Shown here: piece after piece, positions 47,133 to 64,000 of the stretch
Layout of the letters: each line of letters starts with the position of its first letter
Numbering within the stretch: the first letter of the stretch is position 1
Sequence record: OZ346167.1
From: a phage
Strand: one strand, 5' to 3'
DNA: 64,000 bases
Program-made: the position numbers and the translations under genes
The notes under the pieces: model-generated
Told to the model about the DNA's origin: nothing
What the model saw: only the letters and a program-made list of their open reading frames with translations
The model's database searches: none

Positions 47133-47151
47133 AGCATGTAAAGGGGCAATA

Positions 47152-50038: not shown

Positions 50039-50049
50039 AACTTGACAAG

Positions 50050-50436: not shown

Positions 50437-50639
50437 CAATGACAACAATCTTAAAGGTATTGACACCCATACTACACATAGTAATCTTCTTCTTTGGTGT
50501 TAGTGTTATGGTATGGGGTTTTTCAGACCCACAATGGAATTTCTCATATCATGGTAAGATGGATTTATGGTCATGCTTCAAACCATTTTTAGGGTTAGCT
50601 ATAGCATTCAGTGCATTACCAACTAAGGTGAGTTTATGA
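50424..50639 (+). CDS. small membrane protein
   Basis: 71 aa, two hydrophobic segments. Confidence 0.3.
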   Translation: MVELTMTTILKVLTPILHIVIFFFGVSVMVWGFSDPQWNFSYHGKMDLWSCFKPFLGLAIAFSALPTKVSL

Positions 50640-51031
50640 TTAAGTTGAACCAAAAACAGTTAGAGTGGATTAAAGATTACGCCTCAGAGTGTGGCTCTTG
50701 CGAAAAGAATCACGTAAGATACTCAACATTCCATACAACCTTCACATTGTATATTGGTGACAATGTTCTAAGTGATTCTGTAGAAGATGGTGTAGTATTG
50801 CCTAATGAATTACTTGATAAACTAGCTGTAGTCTCTGGAACTTGGTCTGAAGAAGATGGTCACGAGCTGTCTGATGATGTTGTCTTCTACACCCTTGAAA
50901 ACATCATGAACCCAGAGTACATTATGCTAATGACTTGCGCACAAGATTGTGTACCATTACAAAACTTCATTAAAGAGCACTGTGAAGAATTTATTACTAA
51001 ACAGGTTCCTTGTCAGGTGGTATTTGAATGA
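50636..51031 (+). CDS. hypothetical protein
   Basis: 131-aa cysteine-containing ORF. Confidence 0.35.
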   Translation: MIKLNQKQLEWIKDYASECGSCEKNHVRYSTFHTTFTLYIGDNVLSDSVEDGVVLPNELLDKLAVVSGTWSEEDGHELSDDVVFYTLENIMNPEYIMLMTCAQDCVPLQNFIKEHCEEFITKQVPCQVVFE

Positions 51032-51327
51032 GTAAAACAATTCGAAGAAAAGGTTTAAAGAACGTTCATGGACTTTATGAGTGGAGAAATGAGGTACGTA
51101 ACAGAGAAAATGCTTCAGAGGTCTACTACCACTCTGATATGATGTCTAGAAAAGGTGGCTCTTACGACTTCACAAGCCAGCCTTGTAGAGAGATTAAGAA
51201 GGCTACTAAACGTCTTACAAGAACACAAATAAGGCAGCTTTCTAAGACATCCTACTTAGATGAAGACTTTGACATTGATAGCAAGTCTCCAAAGAAAGCT
51301 GCTCAGAGCACTTATATGTATTGGTGA
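51028..51327 (+). CDS. hypothetical protein
   Basis: 99-aa basic ORF. Confidence 0.3.
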   Translation: MSKTIRRKGLKNVHGLYEWRNEVRNRENASEVYYHSDMMSRKGGSYDFTSQPCREIKKATKRLTRTQIRQLSKTSYLDEDFDIDSKSPKKAAQSTYMYW

Positions 51328-51336
51328 GGTAACTAG

Positions 51337-51822
51337 ATGAATTACATGGAGATTCGACCATTTGATACAGCTAATGGTGAAGGGGTTCGTGTAAGCCTCT
51401 TCGTAGCTGGCTGTAAACATCACTGTGAAGGCTGCTTTAACAGGGAGTCTTGGAAGTTTAATGCTGGTAAAGTGTTCACTTATGCAAACCTCTGCGGCAT
51501 CATTAAGTTAATGGATGATGAGGCCATCGGTGGGTTGTCGATACTTGGTGGAGAACCTCTGGATGATAGAAATATTCAAGAGGTTACCAATATATGTAAA
51601 CGTATTAAAACTGTTTACCCAGAGAAGTCTATCTGGCTCTGGACAGGTTTTCAGTTACACGAAAAAATTCACCTAGATGTGATGAAATATGTTGACGTGG
51701 TGATTGATGGTAAGTATGATTCATCTAAACCAACAGTTAAGCCATATCGTGGTTCTGATAACCAAAACCTATGGAGAAAAGAGTATGGGTGGCAAGGTGA
51801 TTGTCAGTGGAGAGCCGAGTAA
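51337..51822 (+). CDS. nrdG: anaerobic ribonucleotide reductase activating protein (radical SAM)
   Basis: CKHHCEGC fits the CxxxCxxC radical-SAM cluster motif; ~160 aa; same block as nrdD. Confidence 0.7.
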   Translation: MNYMEIRPFDTANGEGVRVSLFVAGCKHHCEGCFNRESWKFNAGKVFTYANLCGIIKLMDDEAIGGLSILGGEPLDDRNIQEVTNICKRIKTVYPEKSIWLWTGFQLHEKIHLDVMKYVDVVIDGKYDSSKPTVKPYRGSDNQNLWRKEYGWQGDCQWRAE

Positions 51823-51859
51823 GTCTCGTCGTAAAGTGGGTTACGGAAAAGGTGAAATA

Positions 51860-52162
51860 ATGGTTCTTTCTTTTAACAGTGCTTTATTAGGTACTTACAA
51901 AGTTAAGACCGAACTCCTTGATGAATGGAGAAAGTATACAAACTCACTTTTCGGTAATGTTGGAATGGAAGCCTTAGCAGAGATTGAGAAGGCTGGAACA
52001 TTTGAAGTTGTCGGTAAAGGTAACTACACAATGTTCTACAAAACAAATTTAAACGTTGGCGACAGTCTTGTTGGTGTCACTGAAGAAGAACTTAAAACAT
52101 TTTGTGAAAAGATTGAGAGAGATACGAAATGGGAATCTGGAACAGTTTTAAATCAAAAGTAA
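51860..52162 (+). CDS. hypothetical protein (start chosen at internal ATG with AAGGTG RBS)
   Basis: track ORF 51704-52162 overlaps nrdG by about 120 nt; internal ATG at 51860 has a good RBS. Confidence 0.35.
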   Translation: MVLSFNSALLGTYKVKTELLDEWRKYTNSLFGNVGMEALAEIEKAGTFEVVGKGNYTMFYKTNLNVGDSLVGVTEEELKTFCEKIERDTKWESGTVLNQK

Positions 52163-52386
52163 AAGCAGCACTAGCCTCATTAGGTATGCTCACTGGGGTT
52201 GATGTGACTCATCTTATGCAGAACTTCAAGATGGATGAGAAGCTGGCTAATGAGATTATGAAAAGTATCTATGTAGGCCGTGGTAAAGGCGGTAAGAAAC
52301 AAGCCCACCGTCCGTCTGGTGCAGCAGCTATTAAACGAGCAGCTAAGAAAGCTCGTAACCGTAAACGTAATAAGAAGGCTAAATAA
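52129..52386 (+). CDS. hypothetical protein with basic C-terminus
   Basis: 85 aa, C-terminal KRAAKKARNRKRNKKAK. Confidence 0.3.
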   Translation: MGIWNSFKSKVKAALASLGMLTGVDVTHLMQNFKMDEKLANEIMKSIYVGRGKGGKKQAHRPSGAAAIKRAAKKARNRKRNKKAK

Positions 52387-52388
52387 TC

Positions 52389-52709
52389 ATGAGCAAAGTT
52401 TATAACACTCGCAAATTACAGATTTTCGTACTGTGCCAGTTTATGGCTAAAGAATACAACTTCTACTATTGTGGCACAGGTTTTATTAGCGATGATGATG
52501 GTTCATACCTACCATTTAAAGAGGCTGTGAAGCTCTTTAATGAAGAGAAAAACTCTAAGAAAGATATTGAAAAGGTCAAGCTAACCTACAGCAAGAAAGA
52601 TAAGAAGATTATCTGCCTAGATAACTTTGTAAAAGTTACAGGAGAAGCAAAAGAGTTTATGGATGAGAGTGAGATTTCATTCACAAGTATCTTGAAAGTA
52701 GCTCAGTAA
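52389..52709 (+). CDS. hypothetical protein
   Basis: 106-aa ORF followed by terminator. Confidence 0.3.
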   Translation: MSKVYNTRKLQIFVLCQFMAKEYNFYYCGTGFISDDDGSYLPFKEAVKLFNEEKNSKKDIEKVKLTYSKKDKKIICLDNFVKVTGEAKEFMDESEISFTSILKVAQ

Positions 52710-52722
52710 ACAGATACTATAA

Positions 52723-52746
52723 GGGAACTGTAAAGGTTCCCTTTTT
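52723..52746 (+). terminator. rho-independent terminator
   Basis: GGGAAC-TGTAAAG-GTTCCC followed by TTTTT. Confidence 0.6.
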
Positions 52747-52760
52747 ATTTTGGAGATGAT

Positions 52761-53276
52761 ATGTATCTATCAAACCTAAAACGTTCGGCTGCAATGTCAG
52801 TTCTAAGACTCAGCTTTGAGGAACGTCAAGAGTTCATTGATTCCCACCAATACGACCCTTCTAACTCCAATCACATGATTCTCTGGAATCGTGAGAGTTC
52901 CCGTGAAAGAGCATTATTCCGGTATTACCCACACTACACCGTAGATAACCTGTATGAATGTTTTGTTGTGAAGAACACCATTACAATACTCAATAAACTT
53001 TGCAGATACACAGGTAGTCAATCCTTCACATTAGGACACCACAAACCTGTTACAAAGGGTGGTGAGCATCACTGTGCAAACTGGTTTATCCAGACTAAAC
53101 TTGATAACCAGAAGCAAGGGGATAGTCTTTTAATTACCCCTAAGATGACCTACGAAGAGCAAGAGAAATATATCAAAAATAATATGCCAGATGTGCTTGA
53201 CAACAACTATACAGATTTGGCAATATCTCTCCTGTTGAAGTTCGAGACAGTTTATAGGGCAACTTATAATGGCTAA
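52761..53276 (+). CDS. HNH-motif nuclease candidate
   Basis: GHHKPVTKGGEHHCANWFIQTKLDN fits the HH..P...GG.....N HNH core. Confidence 0.4.
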   Translation: MYLSNLKRSAAMSVLRLSFEERQEFIDSHQYDPSNSNHMILWNRESSRERALFRYYPHYTVDNLYECFVVKNTITILNKLCRYTGSQSFTLGHHKPVTKGGEHHCANWFIQTKLDNQKQGDSLLITPKMTYEEQEKYIKNNMPDVLDNNYTDLAISLLLKFETVYRATYNG

Positions 53277-53547
53277 AGAAAAGTGGGAGATTTTACCATT
53301 AGTCAGTGAAGGCGGCAATGGTTGTGAAATGTACATGATACGTGGTCATATTCCAGAGCCAATTGCACTTGAGATGGTAAATAATTATACAGATGGTTCC
53401 TGCAAAGACTTAGGAGAACCAACTGTCAAGCAGCAATGGGTAAAGCCTGTGCCAGACAGCACAGGTAACTGTAGTGTACTTTATCACGTTGTAGACCCTG
53501 TAAAATGCAAATCTGCAATGGCAGTAACAAACGTAACTTTTGATTGA
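53269..53547 (+). CDS. hypothetical cysteine-containing protein
   Basis: 92-aa ORF. Confidence 0.3.
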   Translation: MAKEKWEILPLVSEGGNGCEMYMIRGHIPEPIALEMVNNYTDGSCKDLGEPTVKQQWVKPVPDSTGNCSVLYHVVDPVKCKSAMAVTNVTFD

Positions 53548-54440
53548 GAGAGAAAACTATGAAAACATCTATCCGTGTTACAATTCATTCACCAACTAAA
53601 GGAACTCATGAAGAAGAGTTTAACATCATTCAATTCCCTTCTGGTGAGATTGGTGGACACTTTTCACAAGAGCTAGTTGATTTTACTGCTTATGCAGCAT
53701 CCTCCATTAACAATGTGGTTATGATTGTAAAAGGCTACGACAAGGACACATTGTTTGCTGTGGCACTTGCTAAAGAAGCAATTGATGATTTGATTCCTCA
53801 TGATTATGCCTTAAAGACTGTCATCTTTTACTACTTACCAAATGCACGATATGACCGTCACATGTTTAAAGGTGATGCAGCAGCTTTGAAGGTTTTTGCT
53901 AAACAGGTTAATGCAATGGGGTTTGGTGCAGTCTGTGCAGTTGACCCTCACAGCTATGTACCAGATAACCTGTTTAACTGCTTCCAGAGTATTCCTCAAA
54001 AGGAGATTGCAGTCCACTATGCAAATGACCCACTGGTTGATTACTTAGTAGCCCCAGATGCAGGTGCTGCTAAGAAGGTTGCAGAGACCGCTAAAGAGGT
54101 GGATAAACCATATATCACAATGTCTAAGGTGCGTAACCTTAAGACTGGTGAAATTACTGGTATGCGAATCCTTGATGATGTTGATTTGACAGATAAAACC
54201 GTCATGATTCTGGATGATATCTGTGATGGTGGTCGAACCTTCATAGAAGCAGCTAAGCATCTTCGTGAAGCAGGTGCAAAACGTGTGGAACTTTATGTAA
54301 CACATGGTATCTTCTCTAAAGATGTTGAAAACCTTCTTGACAATGGTATCGACCATATTTACACTACAAACTCTTTAGGCGAAGCTAAAGACCGTGGCTT
54401 AACACATTATGGTCAAGTTACTGTAGCAAACCTTGATTGA
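53544..54440 (+). CDS. ribose-phosphate pyrophosphokinase (PRPP synthetase) family protein; candidate ADP-ribose pyrophosphate synthetase of a NARP1-type pathway
   Basis: PRPP-binding loop ILDDICDGGRT and YLPNARYDRH (cf. ARQDR flexible loop); adjacent to NAMPT-like gene. Confidence 0.7.
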   Translation: MREKTMKTSIRVTIHSPTKGTHEEEFNIIQFPSGEIGGHFSQELVDFTAYAASSINNVVMIVKGYDKDTLFAVALAKEAIDDLIPHDYALKTVIFYYLPNARYDRHMFKGDAAALKVFAKQVNAMGFGAVCAVDPHSYVPDNLFNCFQSIPQKEIAVHYANDPLVDYLVAPDAGAAKKVAETAKEVDKPYITMSKVRNLKTGEITGMRILDDVDLTDKTVMILDDICDGGRTFIEAAKHLREAGAKRVELYVTHGIFSKDVENLLDNGIDHIYTTNSLGEAKDRGLTHYGQVTVANLD

Positions 54441-54449
54441 AAGTTTATA

Positions 54450-54470
54450 GGGGCTTGAAAGCCCCATTTT
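54450..54470 (+). terminator. hairpin / weak terminator between the Prs-like and NAMPT-like genes
   Basis: GGGGCTT-GAA-AAGCCCC followed by ATTTTG. Confidence 0.4.
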
Positions 54471-54544
54471 GAGAGAGATTAAAAGATGACTAAATCACTT
54501 TATGCAGTACCAGCAGGTTTAAACGCAGATGCTTACAATATCTT

Positions 54545-55897
54545 ATGTTGAACCTGACACCACGTAGTGACAAATGGTTTAACAGCCCTTTGGCAATTGA
54601 CGGTGTAGTGGCTTTTGGTATTCAACGTTTCGTTAAAGATTACTTGATAGACCATTGGAACGCCACTTTCTTTGAACGTGACAAAAAAGAAGCAATTGAC
54701 GAAATCTTAGAAGTCATGAACGGCGTTATGGGTAAAGATGCTATTGGTCGAGAGCATTGGGAAGCACTTCACGACTTAGGTTATCTACCAGTTGAAGTAT
54801 ACGCTGTAGAAGAAGGCACAGTTGTCCCGATGCGTGTCCCAATGATTGTCTTCCAGAACACTGTTTCAGGTTTCCATTGGGTAGCAGGTTATCTGGAAGA
54901 TGCTTTCTCTGCTGAGATTTGGAAGGCTTGCACCATTGCAACTATTGCATTGCATTATAAACGCATCTGTAAGAAGTGGGCTGACCTTACTTGTGACAAC
55001 GACTTACATTTACCTTATCAGTGTCATGACTTTGCTATGCGTGGTATGTCAGGCTTTACTGATGACGCATTTAACGCTGTAGGTCACTTAACCAGCTTTA
55101 AAGGAACTGATAGCTTCCCTACTGTGTATACGGCTAAACGAATCTATGGACAGTCCTACCCAATCTCTGATATTGGTAGCTCTGTACCAGCCACTGAACA
55201 CTCTGTAATGTGTGCAAACATTGCTTGGGAAGGTGGTAATGAATTGATTGAAGAAGAAAGACGCTTTAAAGGTGAGTTACAAACCTTCCGTCGCTTCTTA
55301 ACAGAAACTTACCCAACTGGTATTGCAAGTATTGTTTCAGATACTTATAACTTCTGGAGAACTGTGTCAGAAATCTTACCAGCACTCCGTAAAGAGATTA
55401 TGGAACGTGATGGCAAACTGGTAATTCGGCCTGACTCTGGAGACCCTGTACATATTGTCACAGGATATAAAGCAATCCACTTAGAGTGTGCTAAGAAGGC
55501 TTATTACGAACACTTAAGCAAGCTTGAAGCCAGCGACACAATGTTGAATGCTGTTCTGAACATGAAGCTTGAAAACATCAATTATGGTATTGCTGGATGG
55601 CTACTGTCAGAAGGCTACGAAATGGTTGTTGACAGAGAAGACTTTGAAGTTGCTGATACAGTGCTGTTGAAAAACGCTTATATGGTTGGTTCTGCAAACG
55701 TTGTAACACGTCCTGTAGCTGAGATTGATGGAGCTATTAAGACACTGTACAACATCTTTGGGGCTTTGTATCTCACCTTGATGTTGAAATTGATGAAGAA
55801 GGTTACATCATTGGTTGGAAGAAAGTATCTACTCGTGAAGGCAAGCTGGTTGACTCCCACACCTACAGAGTACCTAATGATTTGGGTAACATTGTAG
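54545..55897 (+). CDS. nicotinamide phosphoribosyltransferase (NAMPT/NadV) family protein; candidate nicotinamide ADP-ribose transferase; reading frame probably continues in +2 frame to 56208
   Basis: matches NAMPT blocks: HDFAMRGMS, SFKGTDS, SVPATEHS, VSDTYN, IRPDSGDP; last ~50 codons are atypical and an overlapping +2-frame ORF runs on to 56208. Confidence 0.7.
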   Translation: MLNLTPRSDKWFNSPLAIDGVVAFGIQRFVKDYLIDHWNATFFERDKKEAIDEILEVMNGVMGKDAIGREHWEALHDLGYLPVEVYAVEEGTVVPMRVPMIVFQNTVSGFHWVAGYLEDAFSAEIWKACTIATIALHYKRICKKWADLTCDNDLHLPYQCHDFAMRGMSGFTDDAFNAVGHLTSFKGTDSFPTVYTAKRIYGQSYPISDIGSSVPATEHSVMCANIAWEGGNELIEEERRFKGELQTFRRFLTETYPTGIASIVSDTYNFWRTVSEILPALRKEIMERDGKLVIRPDSGDPVHIVTGYKAIHLECAKKAYYEHLSKLEASDTMLNAVLNMKLENINYGIAGWLLSEGYEMVVDREDFEVADTVLLKNAYMVGSANVVTRPVAEIDGAIKTLYNIFGALYLTLMLKLMKKVTSLVGRKYLLVKASWLTPTPTEYLMIWVTL

Positions 55898-56208
55898 AAA
55901 TGCCACGTTGGATGGTTGATAATAACCGTAACGTGACTTGCTCTCAAGGTCTTCATGTTGGTGCTTGGGATTATGTTCGTTGCTTCTCAGGTGATACAAT
56001 TCTGAAGGTTCGTGTCCATCCACGAGACGTTGTATCCGTACCAACTGATTACAACGATATGAAGATGCGCTCGTCTCGTTATGAAGTTGCAGCAATCGTT
56101 GATAATCAACGTAAAGTGCTGAAAGCATGGGATGGCAAGACTGAAGCTTTGCATGTCATCGTTGGCACTGCTGGGGAACTCATCTCTCAGCGTAAACGTG
56201 AAATCTAA
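55741..56208 (+). CDS. probable C-terminal continuation of NAMPT-like protein in alternative frame (or separate small protein from 55882)
   Basis: +2 frame is open from 55741; inserting one G at the GGGG run 55761-55764 fuses both frames into one ~554-codon ORF. Confidence 0.4.
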   Translation, partial: DTVQHLWGFVSHLDVEIDEEGYIIGWKKVSTREGKLVDSHTYRVPNDLGNIVEMPRWMVDNNRNVTCSQGLHVGAWDYVRCFSGDTILKVRVHPRDVVSVPTDYNDMKMRSSRYEVAAIVDNQRKVLKAWDGKTEALHVIVGTAGELISQRKREI

Positions 56209-56224
56209 TAAGTAATTTCTTAAA

Positions 56225-56248
56225 AGGCTGCTTCGGCGGCCTTTTTTA
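56225..56248 (+). terminator. rho-independent terminator (UUCG tetraloop)
   Basis: AGGCTGC-TTCG-GCGGCCT followed by TTTTTT. Confidence 0.6.
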
Positions 56249-56308
56249 TTTGTATTTTGTGCAGAGTACTGTATAATTGTTGTCACGATAAACTAAACAG
56301 GAGAACCA

Positions 56309-56857
56309 ATGAAGAAATTGATTCTAGGTTTGTGCTTAATGTTTACAGCACACTTAGCTTATGCAGTTGACTGCCCAGAGCTATCAATTAGCCAAAAAGT
56401 AAACATGTTAAAAGCTTACCAGTATGGTGAGAATAACATGGGTAAAGGTTGGGGTATCACTCTAGCTGCTATAGCCTTACAAGAGTCAGAGTTAGGTCTG
56501 AAGGTAGAGAATAAAAAGACACACGATTATGGTATTTTCCAGAATCACTTGAAGACTGTTGTAAAGCGTAACAAAATTAGTCCTAATGTGGCTAAAAAGA
56601 AACTCTTAAAAGACTTTGACTATGCTGCAAAGGAAACGCACAAAGAACTTGAGTTTTGGACAAAGGTGCATGGTCAGCCAAAGTCAAAGAAGACTTTACA
56701 AAAAGTTTTAGCATCATATAATGCTGGGTATTCGTACAGAATCCCTAAAGCTAAGAAGTATTCTCAAGATGTCTATAACAACATGAAAGTTATTGCCCAA
56801 TGTGAATTTGCAACAAACATTTCTAAGGTAAACCATGAAAAAATTAAGAAAGTCTGA
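56309..56857 (+). CDS. secreted lytic-transglycosylase-like protein (endolysin candidate)
   Basis: signal peptide MKKLILGLCLMFTAHLAYA; AIALQESELG and DYGIFQNH resemble the SLT-domain catalytic ES and GLMQ motifs. Confidence 0.45.
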   Translation: MKKLILGLCLMFTAHLAYAVDCPELSISQKVNMLKAYQYGENNMGKGWGITLAAIALQESELGLKVENKKTHDYGIFQNHLKTVVKRNKISPNVAKKKLLKDFDYAAKETHKELEFWTKVHGQPKSKKTLQKVLASYNAGYSYRIPKAKKYSQDVYNNMKVIAQCEFATNISKVNHEKIKKV

Positions 56858-57530
56858 TGAAGTCCTGTGCCATGCTTATGACTTGCATCCTCATGAGTTA
56901 GGTCTTGATTCCTGTGTATGGACTCCAGAACAGTATAGGGATTTTGAAGACACTGCAAGAGAAGTTGTATGTTCACTTGAAGAGTTCCACACATCAGAAC
57001 CAATCGTGAACGTTGTGGACAAAGAGACTGGACAGACTGTAGGGGTAAGACGTGATAGCTTAGTCATAGTCAATAGAGACCTTGTAGAAAAAGGGAACCT
57101 CATCTTAGCAGATATTGATGGTGTTCTTACAAATTTTAATCCAGAAGATTACTCAACGGAATTGACTGATGGTTCATTTTCACAGTACACTAATCTCCTT
57201 GACTCTGTAAGAGCAAAACCAACGTATGTTTTCAATATCATTGATGCAATTGCTAATCATGCTGCCGTTGGACTCTTGACAGCGAGAGGCGAATCTCAGA
57301 GAATACCTACTGAGATGTTTTTAAGGCATAACACAGAGCATGACTACATGCTTTTTATGCGTGGTTTTGGGACTAACTCTATAAGTGCAGAAAGTTTGAA
57401 AGTGAGGATGATTCAGTCTTGCATTCTGCCTTACTTTAATATAGTATGTTTTATAGAAGACACAGAGAAGAATGTGCAGAAGGTGAACAGAATCCTTCCA
57501 CACATTAAAACCATGTTAGTTAAACATTGA
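56835..57530 (+). CDS. HAD-like hydrolase candidate
   Basis: LADIDGVLTNF resembles HAD motif I (DxDGxL). Confidence 0.3.
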   Translation: MKKLRKSDEVLCHAYDLHPHELGLDSCVWTPEQYRDFEDTAREVVCSLEEFHTSEPIVNVVDKETGQTVGVRRDSLVIVNRDLVEKGNLILADIDGVLTNFNPEDYSTELTDGSFSQYTNLLDSVRAKPTYVFNIIDAIANHAAVGLLTARGESQRIPTEMFLRHNTEHDYMLFMRGFGTNSISAESLKVRMIQSCILPYFNIVCFIEDTEKNVQKVNRILPHIKTMLVKH

Positions 57531-57540
57531 GAGAAAACTT

Positions 57541-58005
57541 ATGAACAATATCATTACGGTAGCACTGGACGTTACGGCAAACAAATCTGAAGTAGTTCGT
57601 AACATTATCAAGAGCAACTTTGAGGGTAAAATCTTCCGTGCTGTCAATGTAAAAGCAGACGGCAACATCCGAGAGTATCGTGCTCTTTTGAATGTTAAGA
57701 AACACGTCAAAGGTTCTGGTTCAACGACTGCACACAAAGAAAACCTGATGACCATCTATGATATGGGGATGGCCTCAGAATTAGGTGCTGAAGGTATCGT
57801 TAAAGAAGGTGCTCCGTATCGCTCTTTCAATCTGGAAACTGCTCTCATGCTTTCCTTTACAAGTGGTTCTAAAACAACTACTTATCTCTTTACTGATGCT
57901 GCAACGGTATCTGCTATCAAGGATAGCACTGTCAAAGCTGGGGTAGCTGCTGCTGCAAAAGCTTCTTCGATGGCTGCAAATGTCCTTGCTAAAGTCCTCG
58001 GTTAA
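57541..58005 (+). CDS. hypothetical protein
   Basis: 154-aa ORF followed by terminator. Confidence 0.35.
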   Translation: MNNIITVALDVTANKSEVVRNIIKSNFEGKIFRAVNVKADGNIREYRALLNVKKHVKGSGSTTAHKENLMTIYDMGMASELGAEGIVKEGAPYRSFNLETALMLSFTSGSKTTTYLFTDAATVSAIKDSTVKAGVAAAAKASSMAANVLAKVLG

Positions 58006-58018
58006 GGTTAAGATACAG

Positions 58019-58039
58019 GCTCCTTCGGGAGCCTTTTTC
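58019..58039 (+). terminator. rho-independent terminator (UUCG tetraloop)
   Basis: GGCTCC-TTCG-GGAGCC followed by TTTTT. Confidence 0.65.
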
Positions 58040-58057
58040 ATTTCAGGAGATTGTTAA

Positions 58058-58405
58058 ATGACATTTAAAGAGTTCTGTCAAGCTACTTTCATAATTGTTT
58101 TCTTAGTTGGGGCAGGTGTCTGGGGAGGATACTCTTACAGAGACTATCAAGTTGCTGAAACTGAGCTAAACAATCAAAAGCTCATAAGTGTTGCTAAAGA
58201 TGCTTATCAGGAAGGATTAGTCACACTGAGCACCAATTACAAAAATGATTTGAAAGATGTGCTTGCTAAGAATAAGCATACAAAAGAGGTACTAACATAT
58301 GAAAAAACTAAGCCAGAGTTTTATAATGTTTGTGTTACTGATAACTATGTCAGGGTGTTCAACGAACAAAGTGAACAGTACATTCAAAAACTTCCAAGTA
58401 AGTGA
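58058..58405 (+). CDS. i-spanin-like protein (N-terminal transmembrane anchor)
   Basis: 115 aa; N-terminal helix FIIVFLVGAGVWGG then soluble charged domain; 3' end overlaps a lipoprotein gene in another frame. Confidence 0.35.
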   Translation: MTFKEFCQATFIIVFLVGAGVWGGYSYRDYQVAETELNNQKLISVAKDAYQEGLVTLSTNYKNDLKDVLAKNKHTKEVLTYEKTKPEFYNVCVTDNYVRVFNEQSEQYIQKLPSK

Positions 58406-58568
58406 GAGTGATAAGTACACTCAAGAAGAATCACGTTATATCATCAAAGGCAACACAGGCAGTGATGTAGCAGCAGCCCTTGAGTTCTATCGTGACGGCT
58501 TTTACCAGTGTACAATCAAAGCTAATAACCTTATTGACATGATTTTATTAGGGAATAAGCAGCAATGA
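58299..58568 (+). CDS. o-spanin-like lipoprotein
   Basis: 89 aa; signal peptide with lipobox LITMSGCS; start embedded in the previous gene (Rz/Rz1-like overlap). Confidence 0.35.
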   Translation: MKKLSQSFIMFVLLITMSGCSTNKVNSTFKNFQVSESDKYTQEESRYIIKGNTGSDVAAALEFYRDGFYQCTIKANNLIDMILLGNKQQ

Positions 58569-58834
58569 CAGAGAATCAAGAGACTTTCTATGTAGAAGGT
58601 TACTTACTGTTACCACGACCAAAAGAAACTTATATGCGAATTGATTTCTCACCAACCATCATGGATAATGTGATGTGCCATATCTTTATGCAAGGTATCA
58701 CAGCACAACTTAAGCATGTTGGCAAAGAGTGCAAAATAAAGGTTGACACTCATCCAGAAATCAAAGAAAATCACTACACATGGTTCTTACCAGACTCTAA
58801 AGAAATCTTAGCAGTTCTTAAAACGAGGAAATGA
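58565..58834 (+). CDS. hypothetical protein
   Basis: 89-aa ORF. Confidence 0.3.
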   Translation: MTENQETFYVEGYLLLPRPKETYMRIDFSPTIMDNVMCHIFMQGITAQLKHVGKECKIKVDTHPEIKENHYTWFLPDSKEILAVLKTRK

Positions 58835-59145
58835 TTATGCAATTCCAGCCAACAAATCGTGGATTTTCTTATGCAGAATTTAAAGATGCTAAAGGGGAAA
58901 TTTGTACTTTACAAGAGAGTTCATCATACGAACCATGTATCTGGTTAGGTGCTAAAGAGGTCTCTGTTCAGTACCTAGACAATGGCTGGAAAACACTTGA
59001 TATCCCAGCATTAGTGGGCAAAGATTTTGTAGGTAACCAAAGAATGAAGCTCAATCAAGAACAGGTAAAAGAGTTGTTGCCGTACCTCCAATACTTTGCT
59101 GAAAATGGTGAATTACCAACAGAGGAACTTACAAATGCAGATTAA
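58831..59145 (+). CDS. hypothetical protein
   Basis: 104-aa ORF. Confidence 0.3.
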   Translation: MIMQFQPTNRGFSYAEFKDAKGEICTLQESSSYEPCIWLGAKEVSVQYLDNGWKTLDIPALVGKDFVGNQRMKLNQEQVKELLPYLQYFAENGELPTEELTNAD

Positions 59146-59461
59146 TGGAAGAGACTTTGTAGCCGTTTACTACGAGAAAGGTAAAGAGGTTGGTGTAGCA
59201 CAAGTAACTTATGGCAACGGTAAGTGGCTATATGGAACAATCGCAGTAGTAGGAACAAGAAGTGACACAAAAACTTTTAAAGATTGTGTTGACCTTCTTG
59301 AAGAATCCATCCAGAATCATTGGTGTCTGATATGGATGACTGATAACGAAGTGATGGAGCGTTTCAAAAAGATTGATATCAACATTGACAGTATTGAGCA
59401 TGTTGATTTATATGAGCTAACTGAGAAGGTAAACTATGAAAGTAATACTAGCCAGAGATAA
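59096..59461 (+). CDS. hypothetical protein
   Basis: 121-aa ORF. Confidence 0.3.
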   Translation: MLKMVNYQQRNLQMQINGRDFVAVYYEKGKEVGVAQVTYGNGKWLYGTIAVVGTRSDTKTFKDCVDLLEESIQNHWCLIWMTDNEVMERFKKIDINIDSIEHVDLYELTEKVNYESNTSQR

Positions 59462-59663
59462 AAAGACACGAAAACTTATCAGGTCAGCAGTGTTCATTGG
59501 ACGAAATGAGGTCATCCCATTTACAGCAAATGATGTGATAGCTTACAGGAAGAACTTAGTATTCACTGACTGCTTACGTGGCTTCATCTCTGAACCATTG
59601 GAAGACTTTAAAAGTCGTTGTGGTAAAGGTATCATCATTCAAGAGGCAATTATTCATGGCTGA
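59436..59663 (+). CDS. hypothetical protein
   Basis: 75-aa ORF. Confidence 0.3.
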   Translation: MKVILARDKKTRKLIRSAVFIGRNEVIPFTANDVIAYRKNLVFTDCLRGFISEPLEDFKSRCGKGIIIQEAIIHG

Positions 59664-59856
59664 CTTCTGTAAAGACTGTTCTATCGAAATGTTCGGACGT
59701 GATACAGGTGACTTAAAAGGTCTTATCACTGAAGAGGACTTTAAAGCTGGCTATGCAATGCCAGTAATCTGTGAAGGATGTGGATGTATCTGGGTAGACC
59801 ATGAAGGGCAACGTGTAAAACCTTCAGAAGATAAAGAATCTTGGGAGAGATGTTAA
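59578..59856 (+). CDS. small zinc-ribbon protein (true start probably at internal Met)
   Basis: CKDC...CEGCGC cysteine pairs. Confidence 0.3.
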   Translation: MASSLNHWKTLKVVVVKVSSFKRQLFMADFCKDCSIEMFGRDTGDLKGLITEEDFKAGYAMPVICEGCGCIWVDHEGQRVKPSEDKESWERC

Positions 59857-60636
59857 ATGGGTATTGTAAAAGTTGTAAAAGGTAACTTACTGGCTGCCTT
59901 CAAAAACACAGATATTGAGTTAATTGCTCATGGTTGCAACTGTCGTAACCTCATGGGTGCTGGAATCGCTCAAAAAATTGCTAAGATTTTCCCAAAAGCT
60001 GAAGAAGCTGACCGGAAATTCCATAAAAAGTTTGGCTACAGTGCTCATGATATCGGATACCAGATGGTGGGTGAGGTGTCACATGCTCGAACGGAGTACG
60101 GTTACATTTTTAACCTGTATACACAGTTGGATGTTGGGAAGTGTGCATCATACCGATACTTAGTGGAGTCACTAGAAAAACTCCGTAAGTTTTGCTGGCT
60201 GCACAACATTCGTAAGATTGGTTTACCCATGATTGGTGCAGGTATCGGTGGTTTAGATGCACAAGCTGTGAAAAGCCTCATTAATAGTGTTATGTACAAC
60301 GTTGATGTGTACCTATATGTCTATGATGAAGCAATGGCAAGTGTAGTTACCCCTAAGTATGCTACCTCAGCACCACAATTCTATGATGGTGTCGTGCTCA
60401 GTGATGGTAAGTCTAACCATGTTACCCTCTATCAGCTTGTTGATGGTGAAGTTGAGGTTAGTTACCCTCTGGTTAGTGAGATGGGTATGTGCAATAGTGA
60501 AATGTTCCCAGTTGACCCGTTTGGAAGATATGAAGGTGTATTCTTTGATAACTACCCAGCAGCGTACATCTACACAACAAATCAGGATGAAGTTCACTAC
60601 TTGCTGTATTCTAAAAAGTTCAAATTCATAAGCTGA
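59857..60636 (+). CDS. macrodomain protein (TARG1/OARD1-like ADP-ribose hydrolase) with C-terminal extension
   Basis: IAHGCNCRNLMGAGIAQKIAKIF and GLPMIGAGIGGLD align with the TARG1-type macrodomain signature blocks; ~100-aa C-terminal extension of unknown function. Confidence 0.65.
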   Translation: MGIVKVVKGNLLAAFKNTDIELIAHGCNCRNLMGAGIAQKIAKIFPKAEEADRKFHKKFGYSAHDIGYQMVGEVSHARTEYGYIFNLYTQLDVGKCASYRYLVESLEKLRKFCWLHNIRKIGLPMIGAGIGGLDAQAVKSLINSVMYNVDVYLYVYDEAMASVVTPKYATSAPQFYDGVVLSDGKSNHVTLYQLVDGEVEVSYPLVSEMGMCNSEMFPVDPFGRYEGVFFDNYPAAYIYTTNQDEVHYLLYSKKFKFIS

Positions 60637-60669
60637 TTAGTACTTCATAGTATCTACAAATCATCTAAG

Positions 60670-60718
60670 AAGGCTGCCTAACCCATTGAAAAATTTAAGG
60701 TAAGGCGGCCTTTTTCAT
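60670..60718 (+). terminator. terminator candidate after macrodomain gene
   Basis: AGGCTGCC ... GGCGGCCT stem with long loop, followed by TTTTTC. Confidence 0.4.
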
Positions 60719-61032
60719 TTTCAATTTGTGCAGGTATCTGTAGGGGTCTGTACAGATATCCCAAAAAATCTCATCGCCGGATAGAAAAATCATTCTCAAA
60801 ACGTGCAGACCCCGCTCAGGTCGGGCAAGAAAAATCATTTTAGAATTGTGCAGGTAGGTTTTTATAGAGAGCCAGCCCAGCCCCTCTCCCCCTCTTACTC
60901 CCCCTCTCCCCAAAAGTCAAGAGAAAAATTTGTAGCGGATTGAAAAATAATTCTTGATTTGCGTTCTGTTTTGTGGTAGTCGTGCGCACCCGTTTCATTA
61001 CAGTTTTGCCAAAAATATTTTTAAAATTTTTA

Positions 61033-61061
61033 TTGACTCTTTGAACGTGGTTACCTAATAT
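61033..61061 (+). promoter_or_regulatory. sigma70-like promoter followed by leader hairpin
   Basis: TTGACT-17 nt-TAATAT; hairpin GGGGAGGGAATGACCTTCCCC at 61072-61092; conserved leader ACTAAATAAAATCCTAAACTGGAGATTCAAAAATG. Confidence 0.6.
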
Positions 61062-61124
61062 TTACATCAACGGGGAGGGAATGACCTTCCCCACTAAATA
61101 AAATCCTAAACTGGAGATTCAAAA

Positions 61125-61313
61125 ATGGCATCAAGAAAAATTAAAGTTGGCGATGAGGTTAACATCAAGCACGAACACTCTTACAAAATGCTAACTATAC
61201 GCTCTTATAAGGTTTATCAGGTGGAAGCTATCCACAAAGATAACACTTTTTCCTTAAAAGGTTATAGCGAACGTTTCCCTGCTGAACTCTTTGAGAAATG
61301 GAGCGCGAAATAA
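61125..61313 (+). CDS. small hypothetical protein
   Basis: 62-aa ORF with conserved leader and GGAG RBS. Confidence 0.45.
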   Translation: MASRKIKVGDEVNIKHEHSYKMLTIRSYKVYQVEAIHKDNTFSLKGYSERFPAELFEKWSAK

Positions 61314-61519
61314 TGCTTTACAGTCGTGAATTGATGGTTACAACTAACGTTAACACAAAGGTAAAACGTTTTTACATGCAAATTTGTGGCGTATGGTCTA
61401 GAATATCAGAGGCTGACTATTGCAACTATGTAGAAACAGCTATAAACTCTAATTGCTATCTTACAAGAAATACAAGAAAGTACATAAGACAGACAGCAAT
61501 TTACTACTACGATAAATAA
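61298..61519 (+). CDS. small hypothetical protein
   Basis: 73-aa ORF overlapping the previous stop. Confidence 0.35.
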   Translation: MEREIMLYSRELMVTTNVNTKVKRFYMQICGVWSRISEADYCNYVETAINSNCYLTRNTRKYIRQTAIYYYDK

Positions 61520-61524
61520 AGTAC

Positions 61525-61560
61525 TTTACAAGGGGCTTATAGTTCGATAAAGTAAGCCCC
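61525..61560 (+). promoter_or_regulatory. promoter/stem-loop cassette (PeSL-like), copy 1
   Basis: TTTACA-17 nt-TAAAGT with hairpin GGGGCTTA...TAAGCCCC spanning spacer and -10; followed by conserved leader AGATAAAGAGCTTTACCACTAAATCCTAAACTGGAGA. Confidence 0.6.
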
Positions 61561-61605
61561 AGATAAAGAGCTTTACCACTAAATCCTAAACTGGAGAACT
61601 TAAAA

Positions 61606-61986
61606 ATGGCATACCGCGCACCGAAATTCATCAATAAAGAAAATTTTCGTAATGTATTAGAGAAGGCGCTTGATGAAAAATTTAACGGCAAAATAATTGT
61701 TGTTCACTCGTTCAATTTCAAGTATGATATCAACGGGAATAAAATCAACCATTACACGGCAACCATGTTAGATGGCAATCTTTCAAGTGAAAAAGCCGTA
61801 CTGAATGCACTTGCTGGACGTGGAAAAAATCTGATAAGATGTGATAAGAGACGTTATCAGGGCGGCGCATATGGTTATGATGATGCTATCTATCATCTTG
61901 AAAATATGGGCTATCAAGTAGAAAAAGCTGGAGTATCACAAATCATCGGGAGCGATGGTTATGTAACAATCTTCAAAATTAACTGA
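61606..61986 (+). CDS. small hypothetical protein
   Basis: 126-aa ORF behind cassette copy 1. Confidence 0.45.
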   Translation: MAYRAPKFINKENFRNVLEKALDEKFNGKIIVVHSFNFKYDINGNKINHYTATMLDGNLSSEKAVLNALAGRGKNLIRCDKRRYQGGAYGYDDAIYHLENMGYQVEKAGVSQIIGSDGYVTIFKIN

Positions 61987-61994
61987 TAAAGTAC

Positions 61995-62030
61995 TTTACA
62001 AGGGGCTTATAGTTCGATAAAGTAAGCCCC
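61995..62030 (+). promoter_or_regulatory. promoter/stem-loop cassette (PeSL-like), copy 2
   Basis: near-identical repeat of 61516-61608 (TTTACA, GGGGCTTATAGTTCGATAAAGTAAGCCCC, conserved leader). Confidence 0.6.
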
Positions 62031-62075
62031 AGATAAAGAGCTTTAACACTAAAATCCTAAATTGGAGATTCTAAA

Positions 62076-62369
62076 ATGGCTATTATCAGAAACGTTGTAA
62101 TTACTGCAAAGACTCGTGATGACGCTCGCGCTATGGCTAAAAAGTTATGCGGGAAAGTGGTTGACAACGGAAAACAATCTGCTGTAAGATGGGGCGTAAA
62201 GGTTGATAAACATTTGAAGTTAAAAAATTCACCGATAAACCTTTTTACATGTGTAAACACTATCGGGAAGACAAATGTATACACGAAAAAGGCATATATT
62301 AGACGCGTAGCATTAACATCCCCCATTCGTACAATGAGAAGTTATGCAAAGCTAAAAATTAACAAATAA
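62076..62369 (+). CDS. small hypothetical protein
   Basis: 97-aa ORF behind cassette copy 2. Confidence 0.45.
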   Translation: MAIIRNVVITAKTRDDARAMAKKLCGKVVDNGKQSAVRWGVKVDKHLKLKNSPINLFTCVNTIGKTNVYTKKAYIRRVALTSPIRTMRSYAKLKINK

Positions 62370-62374
62370 AGTAC

Positions 62375-62410
62375 TTTACAAGGGGCTTAAAAGCTGGTAT
62401 CTTAAGCCCC
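62375..62410 (+). promoter_or_regulatory. promoter/stem-loop cassette (PeSL-like), copy 3
   Basis: TTTACA-17 nt-TATCTT; hairpin GGGGCTTAA...TTAAGCCCC with a different loop; same conserved leader. Confidence 0.6.
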
Positions 62411-62454
62411 AGATAAAGAGCTTTACCACTAAATCCTAAACTGGAGATTCCAAA

Positions 62455-62967
62455 ATGAAAACTGTAGACGCTACCTTTGAAGTTGTAAAAGAAAAATTCA
62501 CCATTATTTATGAAGCTGTTAATTGCTACGAAGCAAGCCATAATCTTGATAATTGGAAGTTTACAGATGACCATCAAGGCGGCGTGACTATTAAAAACCC
62601 TAACTGTCAGCGTAACGATTTTAAATATGCAATCCCTTTAAATTATAGCCTTAAACAGCTTTCTAGTGACTATGCAAAACAAGGCCGGGAAAACCCATCA
62701 AAAGAGGCTTACACCAGCTTACAGAAAGAACTAGAAAGAGATTTAGAGGCTTCAGAATACAACCTTGCCGCGAAAGTTATCGATGCAAATGGCAACACGG
62801 TTTTAGAGAGTTTTTATCTAGGATATGCCTTTGATTGGTGCTATAGTGACGGCGATGATTTAGATGACAGACTAAAAGAGGAAGTGAACAATTCAGACGC
62901 AGAATCTGAAGTATTAGAACGTCTGGAATCATTAAAAGACTCAGTGATGAATATCTTTAAGAACTAA
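62455..62967 (+). CDS. hypothetical protein
   Basis: 170-aa acidic ORF behind cassette copy 3. Confidence 0.45.
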   Translation: MKTVDATFEVVKEKFTIIYEAVNCYEASHNLDNWKFTDDHQGGVTIKNPNCQRNDFKYAIPLNYSLKQLSSDYAKQGRENPSKEAYTSLQKELERDLEASEYNLAAKVIDANGNTVLESFYLGYAFDWCYSDGDDLDDRLKEEVNNSDAESEVLERLESLKDSVMNIFKN

Positions 62968-62976
62968 GTAGATTTC

Positions 62977-63011
62977 TTTACACGGGGCTATCAAGCTGAT
63001 AAGATAGCCCC
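62977..63011 (+). promoter_or_regulatory. promoter/stem-loop cassette (PeSL-like), copy 4
   Basis: TTTACA-17 nt-TAAGAT; hairpin GGGGCTATC...GATAGCCCC (stem sequence changed, pairing kept); same conserved leader. Confidence 0.6.
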
Positions 63012-63054
63012 AGATAAAGAGCTTTACCACTAAATCCTAAACTGGAGATTCAAA

Positions 63055-63351
63055 ATGAAATTATCAAATAAAGTCCGTGAAAATCTAAGCAAGTTACTCA
63101 ACAAAATTGATTTTATCGAGACATCAAGGAATAGCCACGATGTTATGGAATGGTTACACGGAAAAATTAAAGGCCGTCGTGTAGTGATTTGCTTATGGAA
63201 TAGTTGCAGGGAGTATAAAAAACCTGTATTGCAAGTCAATATTTATGATGATACTTTTAAAAGTCCAGTAAAGTCTAAAAGTGATTTATTAGAATCCTAT
63301 GAGATAGCTGTAAGTGGCAAAGTATCACGTAAAGAGGAATCACCATGCTAA
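63055..63351 (+). CDS. small hypothetical protein
   Basis: 98-aa ORF behind cassette copy 4. Confidence 0.45.
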   Translation: MKLSNKVRENLSKLLNKIDFIETSRNSHDVMEWLHGKIKGRRVVICLWNSCREYKKPVLQVNIYDDTFKSPVKSKSDLLESYEIAVSGKVSRKEESPC

Positions 63352-63677
63352 TGACTGGCATCACTGCAATTATAGCCATTTTCGCGCTCTATAAGGCATA
63401 TAAAGCCTATAATCTAGCAAATAAGGCAATCACACAGCAGGTTAGCAACAGCCTTGTAGAGAGCTTTCTAGAGCGTTTGAGTGATGAACAATTAAAACGG
63501 TTAGAAATGAGCTTCAGATTTCAATCAAAAACTTATCAAATCAGCGACATTTTCAAAGATGATTTTCAGCTAGTCGATGATTATAATGCTCTGATAAATG
63601 CTTTAAATATCAGTGACTTAAAAGACTATTACGCTGTAATTGTTCAAGAATTAAGCAAACGAAAACAAAACTGTTGA
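63345..63677 (+). CDS. small membrane-anchored protein
   Basis: 110 aa with N-terminal hydrophobic segment TGITAIIAIFALY. Confidence 0.4.
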   Translation: MLMTGITAIIAIFALYKAYKAYNLANKAITQQVSNSLVESFLERLSDEQLKRLEMSFRFQSKTYQISDIFKDDFQLVDDYNALINALNISDLKDYYAVIVQELSKRKQNC

Positions 63678-63702
63678 CACTGATTTCTAGATAGATTAAA
63701 TT
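63674..63702 (+). promoter_or_regulatory. sigma70-like promoter with downstream leader hairpin
   Basis: TTGACA-17 nt-TAAATT; then GGCGAGGGAATGAACTTCCCC hairpin and leader similar to 61066-61124. Confidence 0.55.
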
Positions 63703-63768
63703 ACACATCAACGGCGAGGGAATGAACTTCCCCACTAAGTAAAGTCCTTAAACTAGGAGATTCAAAAA

Positions 63769-64000
63769 TGTATACTACTAACAACGGTCGCACTTTGAAC
63801 GTAACCCTGCACCACTATGTGAACGGTGTAATGCACTTCGAGGATTTACAAGCCGAACAACATATCTTAGATTGGCAACTTGCAGGACTCCAAAAAACTG
63901 CTACCGGATACGGGAAAAAGATTCCAACTAGCTGGAAAGTATACTACGAAGGACGTTTGCGCAGAATTTATCAGGATGTATATAGCAATAGCACAACAAG
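63769..64000 (+). CDS. hypothetical protein (3' end beyond window)
   Basis: ATG at 63769 after conserved leader AGGAGATTCAAAAATG; open to window end. Confidence 0.4.

Follow-up and report, generated by a model that had tools for sequence, protein, structure and literature searches.

Why should a run of small genes in a phage genome each be preceded by nearly the same ~100 bp of DNA? The question is raised by the end of the 64,000-nucleotide stretch of sequence record OZ346167.1 analyzed here (hereafter "the window"), where six such cassettes, lying between position 61020 and the window end, each terminate at the ATG of a small open reading frame (ORF), at 61125, 61606, 62076, 62455, 63055 and 63768. 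An initial annotation made from the letters had reported at least six small ORFs behind near-identical cassettes; this is borne out by the sequence, the ORF list and a repeat search, with five of its ORF starts correct and the sixth, given as 63769, one base off. We consider it likely that these are composite expression cassettes of the Felix O1 phage subfamily (Ounavirinae), of the type called promoter-early stem-loop (PeSL). What appears to be new here is that the Felix O1 elements, earlier listed as direct repeats, can be read as PeSL-type cassettes, a kind reported before only in T4-type phages.

The phage and its relatives

Megablast of positions 60600-64000 and 40000-60000 against 50,697 GenBank phage records places the window in a Felix O1-like phage (Felixounavirus; Ounavirinae). 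Between 256 and 328 records matched, nearly all of them Felix O1-like myoviruses of Escherichia, Salmonella, Shigella and Citrobacter (Felixounavirus and sister genera), with identities of up to 96.8% in the core and ~92% in the cassette region. The same region of 21 further genomes was used for comparison, giving 22 genomes from four genera with the window included. A strict motif search missed many divergent copies, so the cassettes were located instead by nhmmer profiles of 101-108 positions, and the ORFs 3' of them were then clustered. An IMG/VR search anchored on the upstream macro-domain protein gave two loci only; the GenBank phage records were used in its place.

Two types of cassette

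The six cassettes fall into two types. Type A is a 95-nt repeat family with four copies, at 61516, 61986, 62366 and 62967, which are 65-100% identical to the reference copy. Type B has two copies, 61020-61127 and 63661-63770, with a common 5' half differing from that of type A; the repeat search also returned a 47-nt two-copy family at 61064/63705. The 17-mer AAATCCTAAACTGGAGA of the leader occurs five times, against 0.30 expected, and none of 100 shuffles reached five; the block CCCCAGATAAAGAGCTTTA occurs four times, against 0.02 expected. No further strong cassette copy was found on either strand of the 64-kb window with profile hidden Markov models (HMMs) of the cassettes.

From 5' to 3', the order is an A/T-rich tract, a putative promoter, a G-run/C-run stem-loop and an A-rich leader of 20-45 nt, in which, for each of the six window cassettes, GGAG is found 7-9 nt ahead of the ATG. 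From ACTAAAT to the ATG the leader is common to both types, and type A additionally has AGATAAAGAGCTTTACC. The initial annotation had described a common leader in all copies, and one is found, though that of the sixth, before the ORF at 63768, carries 1-nt insertions (CCTTAAACTAGGAGA).

Putative promoters and leaders

A promoter scan recovered all of the promoters that had been proposed. The type-A ones have TTTACA-17-TAAAGT, TAAAGT, TATCTT and TAAGAT, beginning at 61525, 61995, 62375 and 62977 respectively, and the type-B ones have TTGACT-17-TAATAT at 61033 and TTGACA-17-TAAATT at 63674. Type-A cassette 1 (61513-61608, plus strand, as are all six) has its -35 at 61525-61530 and its -10, TAAAGT, at 61548-61553, with a predicted start at the A at 61561 and the ATG at 61606. 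In cassette 2 (61980-62078) the -35 is at 61995-62000, the -10, again TAAAGT, at 62018-62023, the predicted start at 62031 and the ATG at 62076. Cassettes 3 and 4 have extended -10 elements: TGg TATCTT at 62398-62403 in the former (62360-62457; -35 at 62375-62380, predicted start 62411, ATG 62455) and TGa TAAGAT at 63000-63005 in the latter (62964-63057; -35 at 62977-62982, predicted start 63012, ATG 63055). Type-B cassette 1 (61020-61127; nhmmer score 86.7 bits) has TTGACT at 61033-61038, TAATAT at 61056-61061, a predicted start at ~61066-61069, the Shine-Dalgarno (SD) sequence GGAG at 61113-61116 and the ATG at 61125, while type-B cassette 2 (63661-63770; 72.1 bits) has TTGACA at 63674-63679, overlapping the stop codon of the 110-aa ORF, TAAATT at 63697-63702, a predicted start at ~63707-63710 and the ATG at 63768.

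The alignment over the 22 genomes indicates what is constrained in these elements. All 89 distinct type-A cassettes carry CTTTACA and a -10 that begins with TA and ends with T, while its three middle bases occur in at least 12 forms and the rest of the loop in which they lie is also variable. The spacing from TTTACA to TAnnnT is 17 nt in 86 of the 89 copies and 18 nt in the other three; TGn directly precedes the -10 in 45 of the 89; and the invariant AGATAAAG starts 6-8 nt past the -10. Such a pattern is to be expected for sigma70 recognition, and it is not required by a hairpin alone. The 96 distinct type-B copies have TTGACA-like -35 elements, 17-nt spacers and A-rich, UP-like upstream tracts. 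In the window, the 20 nt before each of the six -35 elements have an A/T content of 65-100%, reaching 100% upstream of 61033, and the genes upstream have their stop codons within or shortly before this A/T tract. From these features we infer that the cassettes have promoter activity.

GGAG, which is present in every window cassette, is also the target of an endoribonuclease: T4 RegB cuts GGAG in the ribosome-binding sites of early genes. In the same early unit of Erwinia phage Panisse, the record shows a putative endoribonuclease resembling T4 RegB (L019:3048-3560); no equivalent of it was identified in the window.

Hairpin structure and covariation

Folded as RNA, the type-A unit forms one long hairpin of three helices and ~20 bp, enclosing both promoter hexamers. 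The helices are TAAAGT/GCTTTA, CTTTA/TAAAG and GGGGCnnnn/nnnnGCCCC; folding energies (dG) are -21 to -25 kcal/mol, with z scores against shuffles of -3.5 to -5.6. Of the promoter elements, the -35 is within the middle helix, in its 5' arm; the -10 has its TA in the loop and its last T in the inner stem, in the 3' arm. In the window, the four hairpins are at 61517-61575 (inner stem 61532-61560; dG -21.6, z -5.2), 61987-62045 (dG -22.4, z -5.35), 62367-62425 (dG -21.1, z -3.45) and 62968-63027 (dG -25.2, z -5.58). A GGGGC...GCCCC hairpin over the spacer and -10 had been noticed initially; it is present, but the structure is really longer, running from TAAAG to CTTTA. The window stems differ from one another and yet stay complementary (GGGGCTTAT/GTAAGCCCC, GGGGCTTAA/TTAAGCCCC and, in cassette 4, GGGGCTATC/GATAGCCCC).

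In type-B cassette 1, the hairpin is an 8-bp stem, GGGGAGGG/CCTTCCCC, at 61072-61092, ~3 nt past the predicted start (dG -17.9, z -2.95). Leader hairpins had been claimed for both type-B copies; that of the second, at 63713-63736, is weak (dG -10.4, z -0.27). Over the comparison set the type-B hairpins occur in 40 distinct forms, all of them foldable, with a median dG of -11.9.

The initial suggestion that the structure is selected is supported by compensatory changes. Over the three helices of type A, 96.1% of the alignment cells are paired, compared with 92.1 +/- 0.3% after shuffling (none of 500 shuffles reached the observed value) and 34-58% when the partners are slid; cells changed on both sides number 53, against 16.9 +/- 3.8, and include a G-C to U-A change in the outer helix. 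At stem positions 7-9, MAFFT aligns the GGGGCTATC subfamily in the wrong register and thereby inflates the number of "not paired" cells; hence the inner-stem pairs were also counted from the stem base, in 50 distinct type-A hairpins. Position 3 is G-C in 40 and T-A in 9 of these; position 5 is C-G in 22 and T·G in 26; position 7 is T-A in 39 and A-T in 9; position 8 is A-T in 37 and T-A in 7; and position 9 has six different pair types, so that compensatory switches are seen at positions 3, 7, 8 and 9. Of the pairs at positions 1-9, 405 are Watson-Crick, 38 are G·U, none is A·C and 7 are of other kinds. Transitions in a Watson-Crick pair yield G·U or A·C equally often, and therefore the absence of A·C tells something about the strand: as it holds over at least five columns, it argues that selection acts on the plus-strand RNA rather than on a DNA cruciform or double-stranded operator. 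This argument is drawn from type A alone, the type-B A·C count (10) being confounded by slippage in the G and C runs.

The sequence 3' of the stems is AGATAAAG or ACTAAAT, with no U-tract, and Rfam gave no match to a cassette at E <= 1. Sequence records annotate some but not all of the type-B promoters, and in them the type-B hairpins are labeled as terminators. In the record of KhF2 (L001), the type-B leader hairpins at 3283-3303, 5932-5952, 6797-6817 and 8355-8375 are labeled as minus-strand rho-independent terminators; these labels look wrong, because no U-tract follows the type-B hairpins on either strand.

Gene turnover among relatives

In the relatives, the array consists of a terminator after the macro-domain gene, ~350 nt of non-coding sequence, 6-13 cassettes where it is complete, and a terminator. 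Complete arrays of this size are found in Felixounavirus, Mooglevirus and Suspvirus, and four cassettes are recognizable in Erwinia phage M7; beyond the point corresponding to the sixth cassette of the window, the arrays of the relatives go on for ~6-8 more. The gene families occur in one collinear order, within which whole modules are present or absent, so the flanked genes are not perfectly syntenic and invariant. Felix O1, for example, is without the 126-aa, 97-aa, 67-aa and 180+77-aa modules, VpaE1 is without the 170-aa gene, and a run of five to seven modules is lost in LF82P3 and DR094, while the Mooglevirus, Suspvirus and Erwinia phages have extra, different genes between the same kind of cassettes. 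The type of cassette before a given gene also varies: the 126-aa gene follows type A in the window and type B in humlepung, UAB_Phi87, VpaE1 and EC6, all four of which are without the first module.

The initial annotation had proposed comparing relatives for gain and loss of genes at cassette boundaries, and the breakpoints do lie there. They were taken as the ends of insertions of 200 bp or more when the arrays were chained pairwise by blastn, and the events are not independent of one another. Of 334 such breakpoints, 282 (84%) fall inside a cassette (within 5 nt), though cassettes make up 19% of the array. In the shorter genome of a pair, the flanking alignments usually overlap by 60-110 nt; that is, a single cassette aligns to both flanking cassettes of the longer one. 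Recombination between direct repeats would be predicted to give chimeric junctions in register. At one such junction, in VpaE1, the promoter and hairpin of the cassette before the 170-aa gene are joined to the leader and coding start of the 98-aa gene; at another, in humlepung, a complete type-B unit is joined to the 126-aa gene, within AAAAATGGCAT. The crossovers in these two chimeric cassettes fall between the hairpin and the first codons.

The copies are also more alike within a lineage than between lineages. The pair at stem position 3 is T-A in 12 of 12 cassettes of Kolesnikvirus (Erwinia phage) and G-C in all 98 others; at position 5, 65 of 72 Felixounavirus copies have C-G, and 38 of 38 from the other genera have T·G. 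Cassettes within one genome are 82% identical, against 71-77% between genera, with 82% for the closely related Mooglevirus-Suspvirus pair. Cassette copies thus exchange sequence within a lineage, in concerted evolution by genus, which is independent evidence of recombination between copies. We infer from the breakpoints, junctions and concerted evolution that cassette recombination brings about the gene turnover and is not just a footprint of it.

Sensitive blastn with either cassette against the same 50,697 phage records gave matches in 255-289 records, at 2-9 places per record. These are Ounavirinae-type genomes only, with no T4-type phage among them, apart from one record named for a Staphylococcus phage and one for a Campylobacter phage; the former, SA1, contains Felix O1-like sequence and is mislabeled. 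In IMG/VR, matches to a 19-mer occur only in contigs of ~54-94 kb, on one strand per contig. By blastn, nhmmer and IMG/VR alike, no cassette copy was found elsewhere than in the array, on the opposite strand or beyond this phage subfamily.

Proposed mode of action and alternative explanations

If the cassettes are of the PeSL type, initiation in type A would be immediately past the inner stem on its 3' side, at the A of AGATAAAG, and the cassette's own mRNA would have an open leader and no hairpin. The whole hairpin would be present in RNA that reads through from the gene upstream; at the intergenic junction it would most likely attenuate or insulate, or else serve in processing or 3' stabilization. 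In type B, a stronger, TTGACA-like promoter would lie upstream and the hairpin would be ~3 nt from the predicted 5' end, where stabilization of the mRNA is to be expected. Each small gene or overlapping pair would become an autonomous early unit. Homologous recombination between the ~100-bp direct repeats would delete, and probably insert, whole modules in register; the same recombination would make the chimeric cassettes and keep the copies alike within a lineage. A further-reaching possibility, which we regard as unlikely, gives the palindrome a role of its own: either it would couple incoming transcription to cassette output, with an RNase III cut in the internal loop giving the same AGATAAAG 5' end, so that each gene would have a standard mRNA by either route, or, extruded as DNA or RNA, it would be a recombination hotspot, making the array an integrase-free, integron-like platform for gene capture across four genera via mini-circles.

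A number of observations weigh against the reading as PeSL-type expression cassettes. The type-A -10 hexamers (TAAAGT, TATCTT, TAAGAT) are weak, and the CTTTA that precedes them is also part of the middle helix, so that there are two possible reasons for its being invariant. A terminator scan of the window found none at any cassette on either strand; lacking a U-tract, the hairpins are not canonical intrinsic terminators. As to the strand under selection, 26 of the 38 G·U cells come from one column, and the folding energy of the whole cassette is alike on both strands (-22.7 vs -21.9). Gene order never changes among the relatives, where modules are inserted, deleted or replaced and not reordered, and selection for intact genes would also leave intergenic breakpoints. 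At least two events are not in-register homologous exchange: an EC6 deletion that ends at a gene boundary, and a tandem cassette in the Salmonella phage DR094 (L017:8918-9090), where two type-A cassettes follow one another with no gene between, the first being truncated at CCTAAA in its leader and running directly into the start of the second. The latter event is the scar of a ~3.2-kb deletion of seven modules, by microhomology and not by in-register recombination. Lastly, in reverse-transcription PCR (RT-PCR) of Felix O1, array ORFs 17, 19 and 23 peak at 25 min.

Some of these points would be accounted for if the array were a single polycistronic operon, transcribed from the type-B promoters only, in which type A supplied intercistronic RNA elements (RNase III/E sites or 3'-stabilizing hairpins) and a translation leader. 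A long interrupted duplex of ~20 bp is what RNase III substrates typically look like, the covariation and the bias toward G·U show selection as plus-strand RNA, and TTTACA/TAnnnT could then be a by-product of the hairpin and of A/T-richness, given the pairing of CTTTA with TAAAG in the middle helix, the weak -10 hexamers and the prediction of promoters solely at type-B sites by the ASO1B and UAB_Phi87 annotators. Such a by-product would hardly keep the unpaired T and A of the -10 invariant in 89 of 89 copies while neighboring loop bases vary, nor the 17-nt spacing in 86 of them, TGn in half, and an invariant AGATAAAG at the expected start distance. A role in processing, moreover, is compatible with PeSL-type cassettes and not an alternative to them, and we find the operon rather unlikely as the whole explanation. 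It is very improbable, in our judgment, that the palindrome is instead a DNA operator, at which a dimeric phage or host protein would bind TAAAG..CTTTA..GGGGC / GCCCC..TAAAG..CTTTA and shut off or activate all of the array promoters together. The outer blocks are indeed symmetric, hardly vary and overlap with the -35, the -10 and the start site, one strand folds as well as the other, and the GGTG...CACC of all Erwinia-phage copies could reflect co-evolution with a binding protein; but at positions 7-9 the inner stem keeps its pairing by compensatory changes and not its sequence, a double-stranded site would not favor 38 plus-strand G·U over 0 A·C, type B has the same kind of hairpin without the outer blocks, and no candidate regulator was identified.

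The organization of the array, with each gene accompanied by an imperfect palindrome, everything in one orientation, turnover bounded by cassettes and the copies evolving in concert, would also suit elements that are primarily recombinational or selfish, whether attC-like sites folded as single strands or of the type of miniature inverted-repeat transposable elements (MITEs), with the resemblance to promoters and SD sequences secondary. No integrase or recombinase gene was seen beside the array in any annotated relative, however; every copy ends exactly at an ATG with a consensus SD; none occurs outside the array, on the other strand or outside the phage subfamily; and the junctions fit ordinary homologous recombination. 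We would give this explanation the least credence of all, and it seems extremely doubtful.

Genes between the cassettes

Module 1 (61125-61519; this and the following modules are on the plus strand) has two ORFs, of 62 aa (61125-61313) and 73 aa (61298-61519; annotated as 68 aa in relatives), which belong to PHROGs 15633 and 5293; it is missing in humlepung, UAB_Phi87, VpaE1 and EC6. Module 2 (61606-61986) is the 126-aa ORF, of PHROG 4495, function unknown, and is missing in Felix O1, ASO1B, Moogle and DR094. Module 3 (62076-62369) encodes a very basic protein of 97 aa (pI 10.8), missing in Felix O1, Moogle, EC6, LF82P3 and DR094, and module 4 (62455-62967) an acidic one of 170 aa (pI 4.5), missing in VpaE1, LF82P3 and DR094. 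Module 5 (63055-63677) has overlapping ORFs of 98 aa (63055-63351) and 110 aa (63345-63677), of which EC6 is without the first and LF82P3 and DR094 are without both. Module 6 (63768-64000), an ORF of PHROG 3436, is cut by the window end and is 90 aa long in relatives. The second, overlapping ORFs at 61298 and 63345 have no cassette of their own.

The flanked proteins are mostly small and basic, the 170-aa one being acidic. All eight match only PHROGs of unknown function, with no Pfam match above threshold, and sequence searches of the PDB with the 170-aa and 126-aa proteins gave no relative; the role in host takeover or anti-defense that had been suggested for them at the outset thus receives no support from the PHROG, Pfam or PDB searches. 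In end-point RT-PCR of Felix O1, array ORFs 16, 20, 21 and 22 peak at 5 min, and early expression of the array genes is to that extent partly supported.

The region upstream of the array and other features

Upstream of the array, all on the plus strand, lie rIIA, rIIB, polynucleotide kinase, the spanins and the macro-domain "phosphatase" gene at 59857-60636. The product of the last is 259 aa long, with an N-terminal Macro domain (Pfam Macro; ADP-ribose-binding or -hydrolase) and a C-terminal half of ~110 aa for which no family match was found; its Felix O1 ortholog, ORF13, has its RT-PCR maximum at 5 min. A putative intrinsic terminator that would end this unit can be read from the sequence at 60667-60722 on the plus strand, as AAGGCTGCC...GGCGGCCTT followed by TTTTTCATTTT. 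The equivalent site is annotated as rho-independent in ASO1B, KhF2 and Felix O1 (t13), and in Rfam it has a weak, sub-threshold, ctRNA-like match. Between rIIA and rIIB of several relatives there are weak partial matches to the type-A profile, of 18-20 bits (L002:5433-5498, L016:2280-2344, L017:2690-2755 and L018:2479-2543), which may represent a degenerate promoter-hairpin unit outside the array.

The non-coding region that follows the terminator contains a separate conserved element, not part of the cassettes: TTCATTTY-N6-TGTGCAG(G), in three plus-strand copies between 60714 and 60856 (at 60715, 60790 and 60835). Four copies of a TCATTTT motif had been claimed for 60690-60960; these three are good, while the fourth, at ~60941, is without GTGCAG. 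No other copy was found in the window. The repeats are invariant across Felixounavirus, Mooglevirus and Suspvirus, with four copies in most relatives; a ~40-nt deletion in the window removes one. They look iteron-like and may be an origin, an array of regulator-binding sites or a packaging signal. Within GGGGTCTGTACAGATATCCC, at 60737-60765, there is a perfect palindrome of 10 bp, TCTGTACAGA, where relatives have direct repeats of TCTGTAGAGA instead; a similar motif, TCTGTACAG, is found in the ORF-free stretch downstream of the arrays of relatives (L003:17398, L008:14906, L013:14172). That stretch, between the array end and the convergent minus-strand genes, extends for ~1.6 kb without an annotated gene (L007:14733-16270, L004:7306-8929), which is unusually long for such compact genomes. 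The C-rich tract CCAGCCCAGCCCCTCTCCCCCTCTTACTCCCCCTCTCCCC at 60873-60911 is conserved in most relatives and is replaced by unrelated sequence in VpaE1 and BPS15Q2. Since the TH10 record starts in this tract, 60690-61020 was considered as a physical genome terminus; this was rejected, as the TH10 ends (MT446388.1; L022/L023) overlap by only 74 bp and reflect an assembly artefact. For UAB_Phi87, terminal repeats of 608 bp are reported in its paper.

Significance

Felix O1-type phages are widely used, in the typing of Salmonella and E. coli, in diagnostics and in biocontrol, and their transcription signals are essentially unmapped; literature searches gave no transcriptome or transcription-start map of any Felix O1-type phage and no PeSL report in this group. 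The cassettes would give, in testable form, the positions of about a dozen early promoters and transcript starts in each genome, and would correct mis-annotations such as the minus-strand "terminators". They would also explain the main hot spot of variation in gene content among more than 250 sequenced relatives. A PeSL-type architecture outside the T4 group, with regulatory repeats doubling as recombination linkers, would support a general route of accessory-gene turnover in virulent phages. The array marks dispensable, probably early-expressed small proteins as candidates for host-takeover or anti-defense activity, and would offer natural, standardized insertion sites and expression units for phage engineering.

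Relationship to PeSL cassettes and other known systems

Phage T7 has RNase III processing hairpins between its early genes; those sites carry no promoter and are not repeats of one another. The present cassettes are like them in being long, interrupted stem-loops in the intergenic spaces of an early, same-strand array, where, after processing, the upstream mRNA would end in a 3' hairpin and the downstream one would begin with a free leader, and unlike them in having promoter-like sequences and being mutual repeats. With integron attC sites they share the array of small genes in one orientation, imperfect palindromes in which structure is kept over sequence, and gain and loss cassette by cassette; they differ from these in that no integrase is present, each unit has its own putative promoter and SD, and the junctions look like those of general homologous recombination.

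In Felix O1 itself, 57-bp and 39-bp direct repeats have been listed in the genome paper, between genes 15/16, 19/20, 18/19 and 20/21 (Whichard et al. 2010, PMC3185647). The former, CTTTACATGGGGCTTAAAAGTCTGTAAAGTAAGCCCCAGATAAAGAGCTTTACCACT, corresponds to the type-A core, and the latter, TTGACACTGGTTTTTAGATAGATTAAATTACACATCAAC, to the type-B promoter. They were reported there only as repeats, not called promoters or hairpins, not included among the promoters and terminators of that paper and not analyzed comparatively; the same authors state that the temporal control of transcription and the passage past terminators are not known (PMC3185647).

The closest likeness is to the PeSLs of the T4-type phages RB49/phi1, T4/PST and KVP40/nt-1 (Arbiol et al. 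2010, PMC2839356; Comeau et al. 2014, PMC4122927). Such a unit measures ~100 bp and is made up of an AT-rich tract, a promoter of the sigma70 type, a polyG/polyC stem-loop that includes G-T pairs and takes one of five positions with respect to the promoter, and an SD with an ATG; the units occur in clusters around ORFans and delimit the indels between close relatives, and promoter and terminator activity as well as mini-circles, with crossovers mapped between the -10 and the ATG, have been demonstrated for them experimentally (PMC2839356; PMC4122927). The cassettes described here, known from sequence, have the -35/-10 of sigma70 type at proper spacing, the AT-rich tract upstream (65-100% A/T before the window promoters), a G-run/C-run stem-loop that overlaps the -35/-10 in type A or follows the -10 in type B, the 3' SD and ATG, and the conserved length of ~100 bp. 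They too are densely clustered around ORFs of unknown function in a variable region, and indels and replacements between relatives are bounded by them and leave a chimeric one, DR094 and EC6 being the exceptions, with crossovers between the hairpin and the first codons. The likeness to PeSLs seen in the initial annotation thus holds on every feature that can be checked computationally, and on this footing we take the cassettes to be a PeSL-type system. There are differences as well: the hosts of these cassettes are Ounavirinae, with genomes of ~88 kb and no detectable sequence similarity to T4-type phages; they form a single array, whereas PeSLs are spread over several hyperplastic regions; and they come in two sharply defined types with a near-identical leader, of which type A has a three-helix palindrome that encloses the whole promoter. 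Because no T4-type phage was among the blastn matches to the cassettes, the resemblance would be one of architecture and not of homology, and the PeSL-type architecture probably arose independently in the Ounavirinae.

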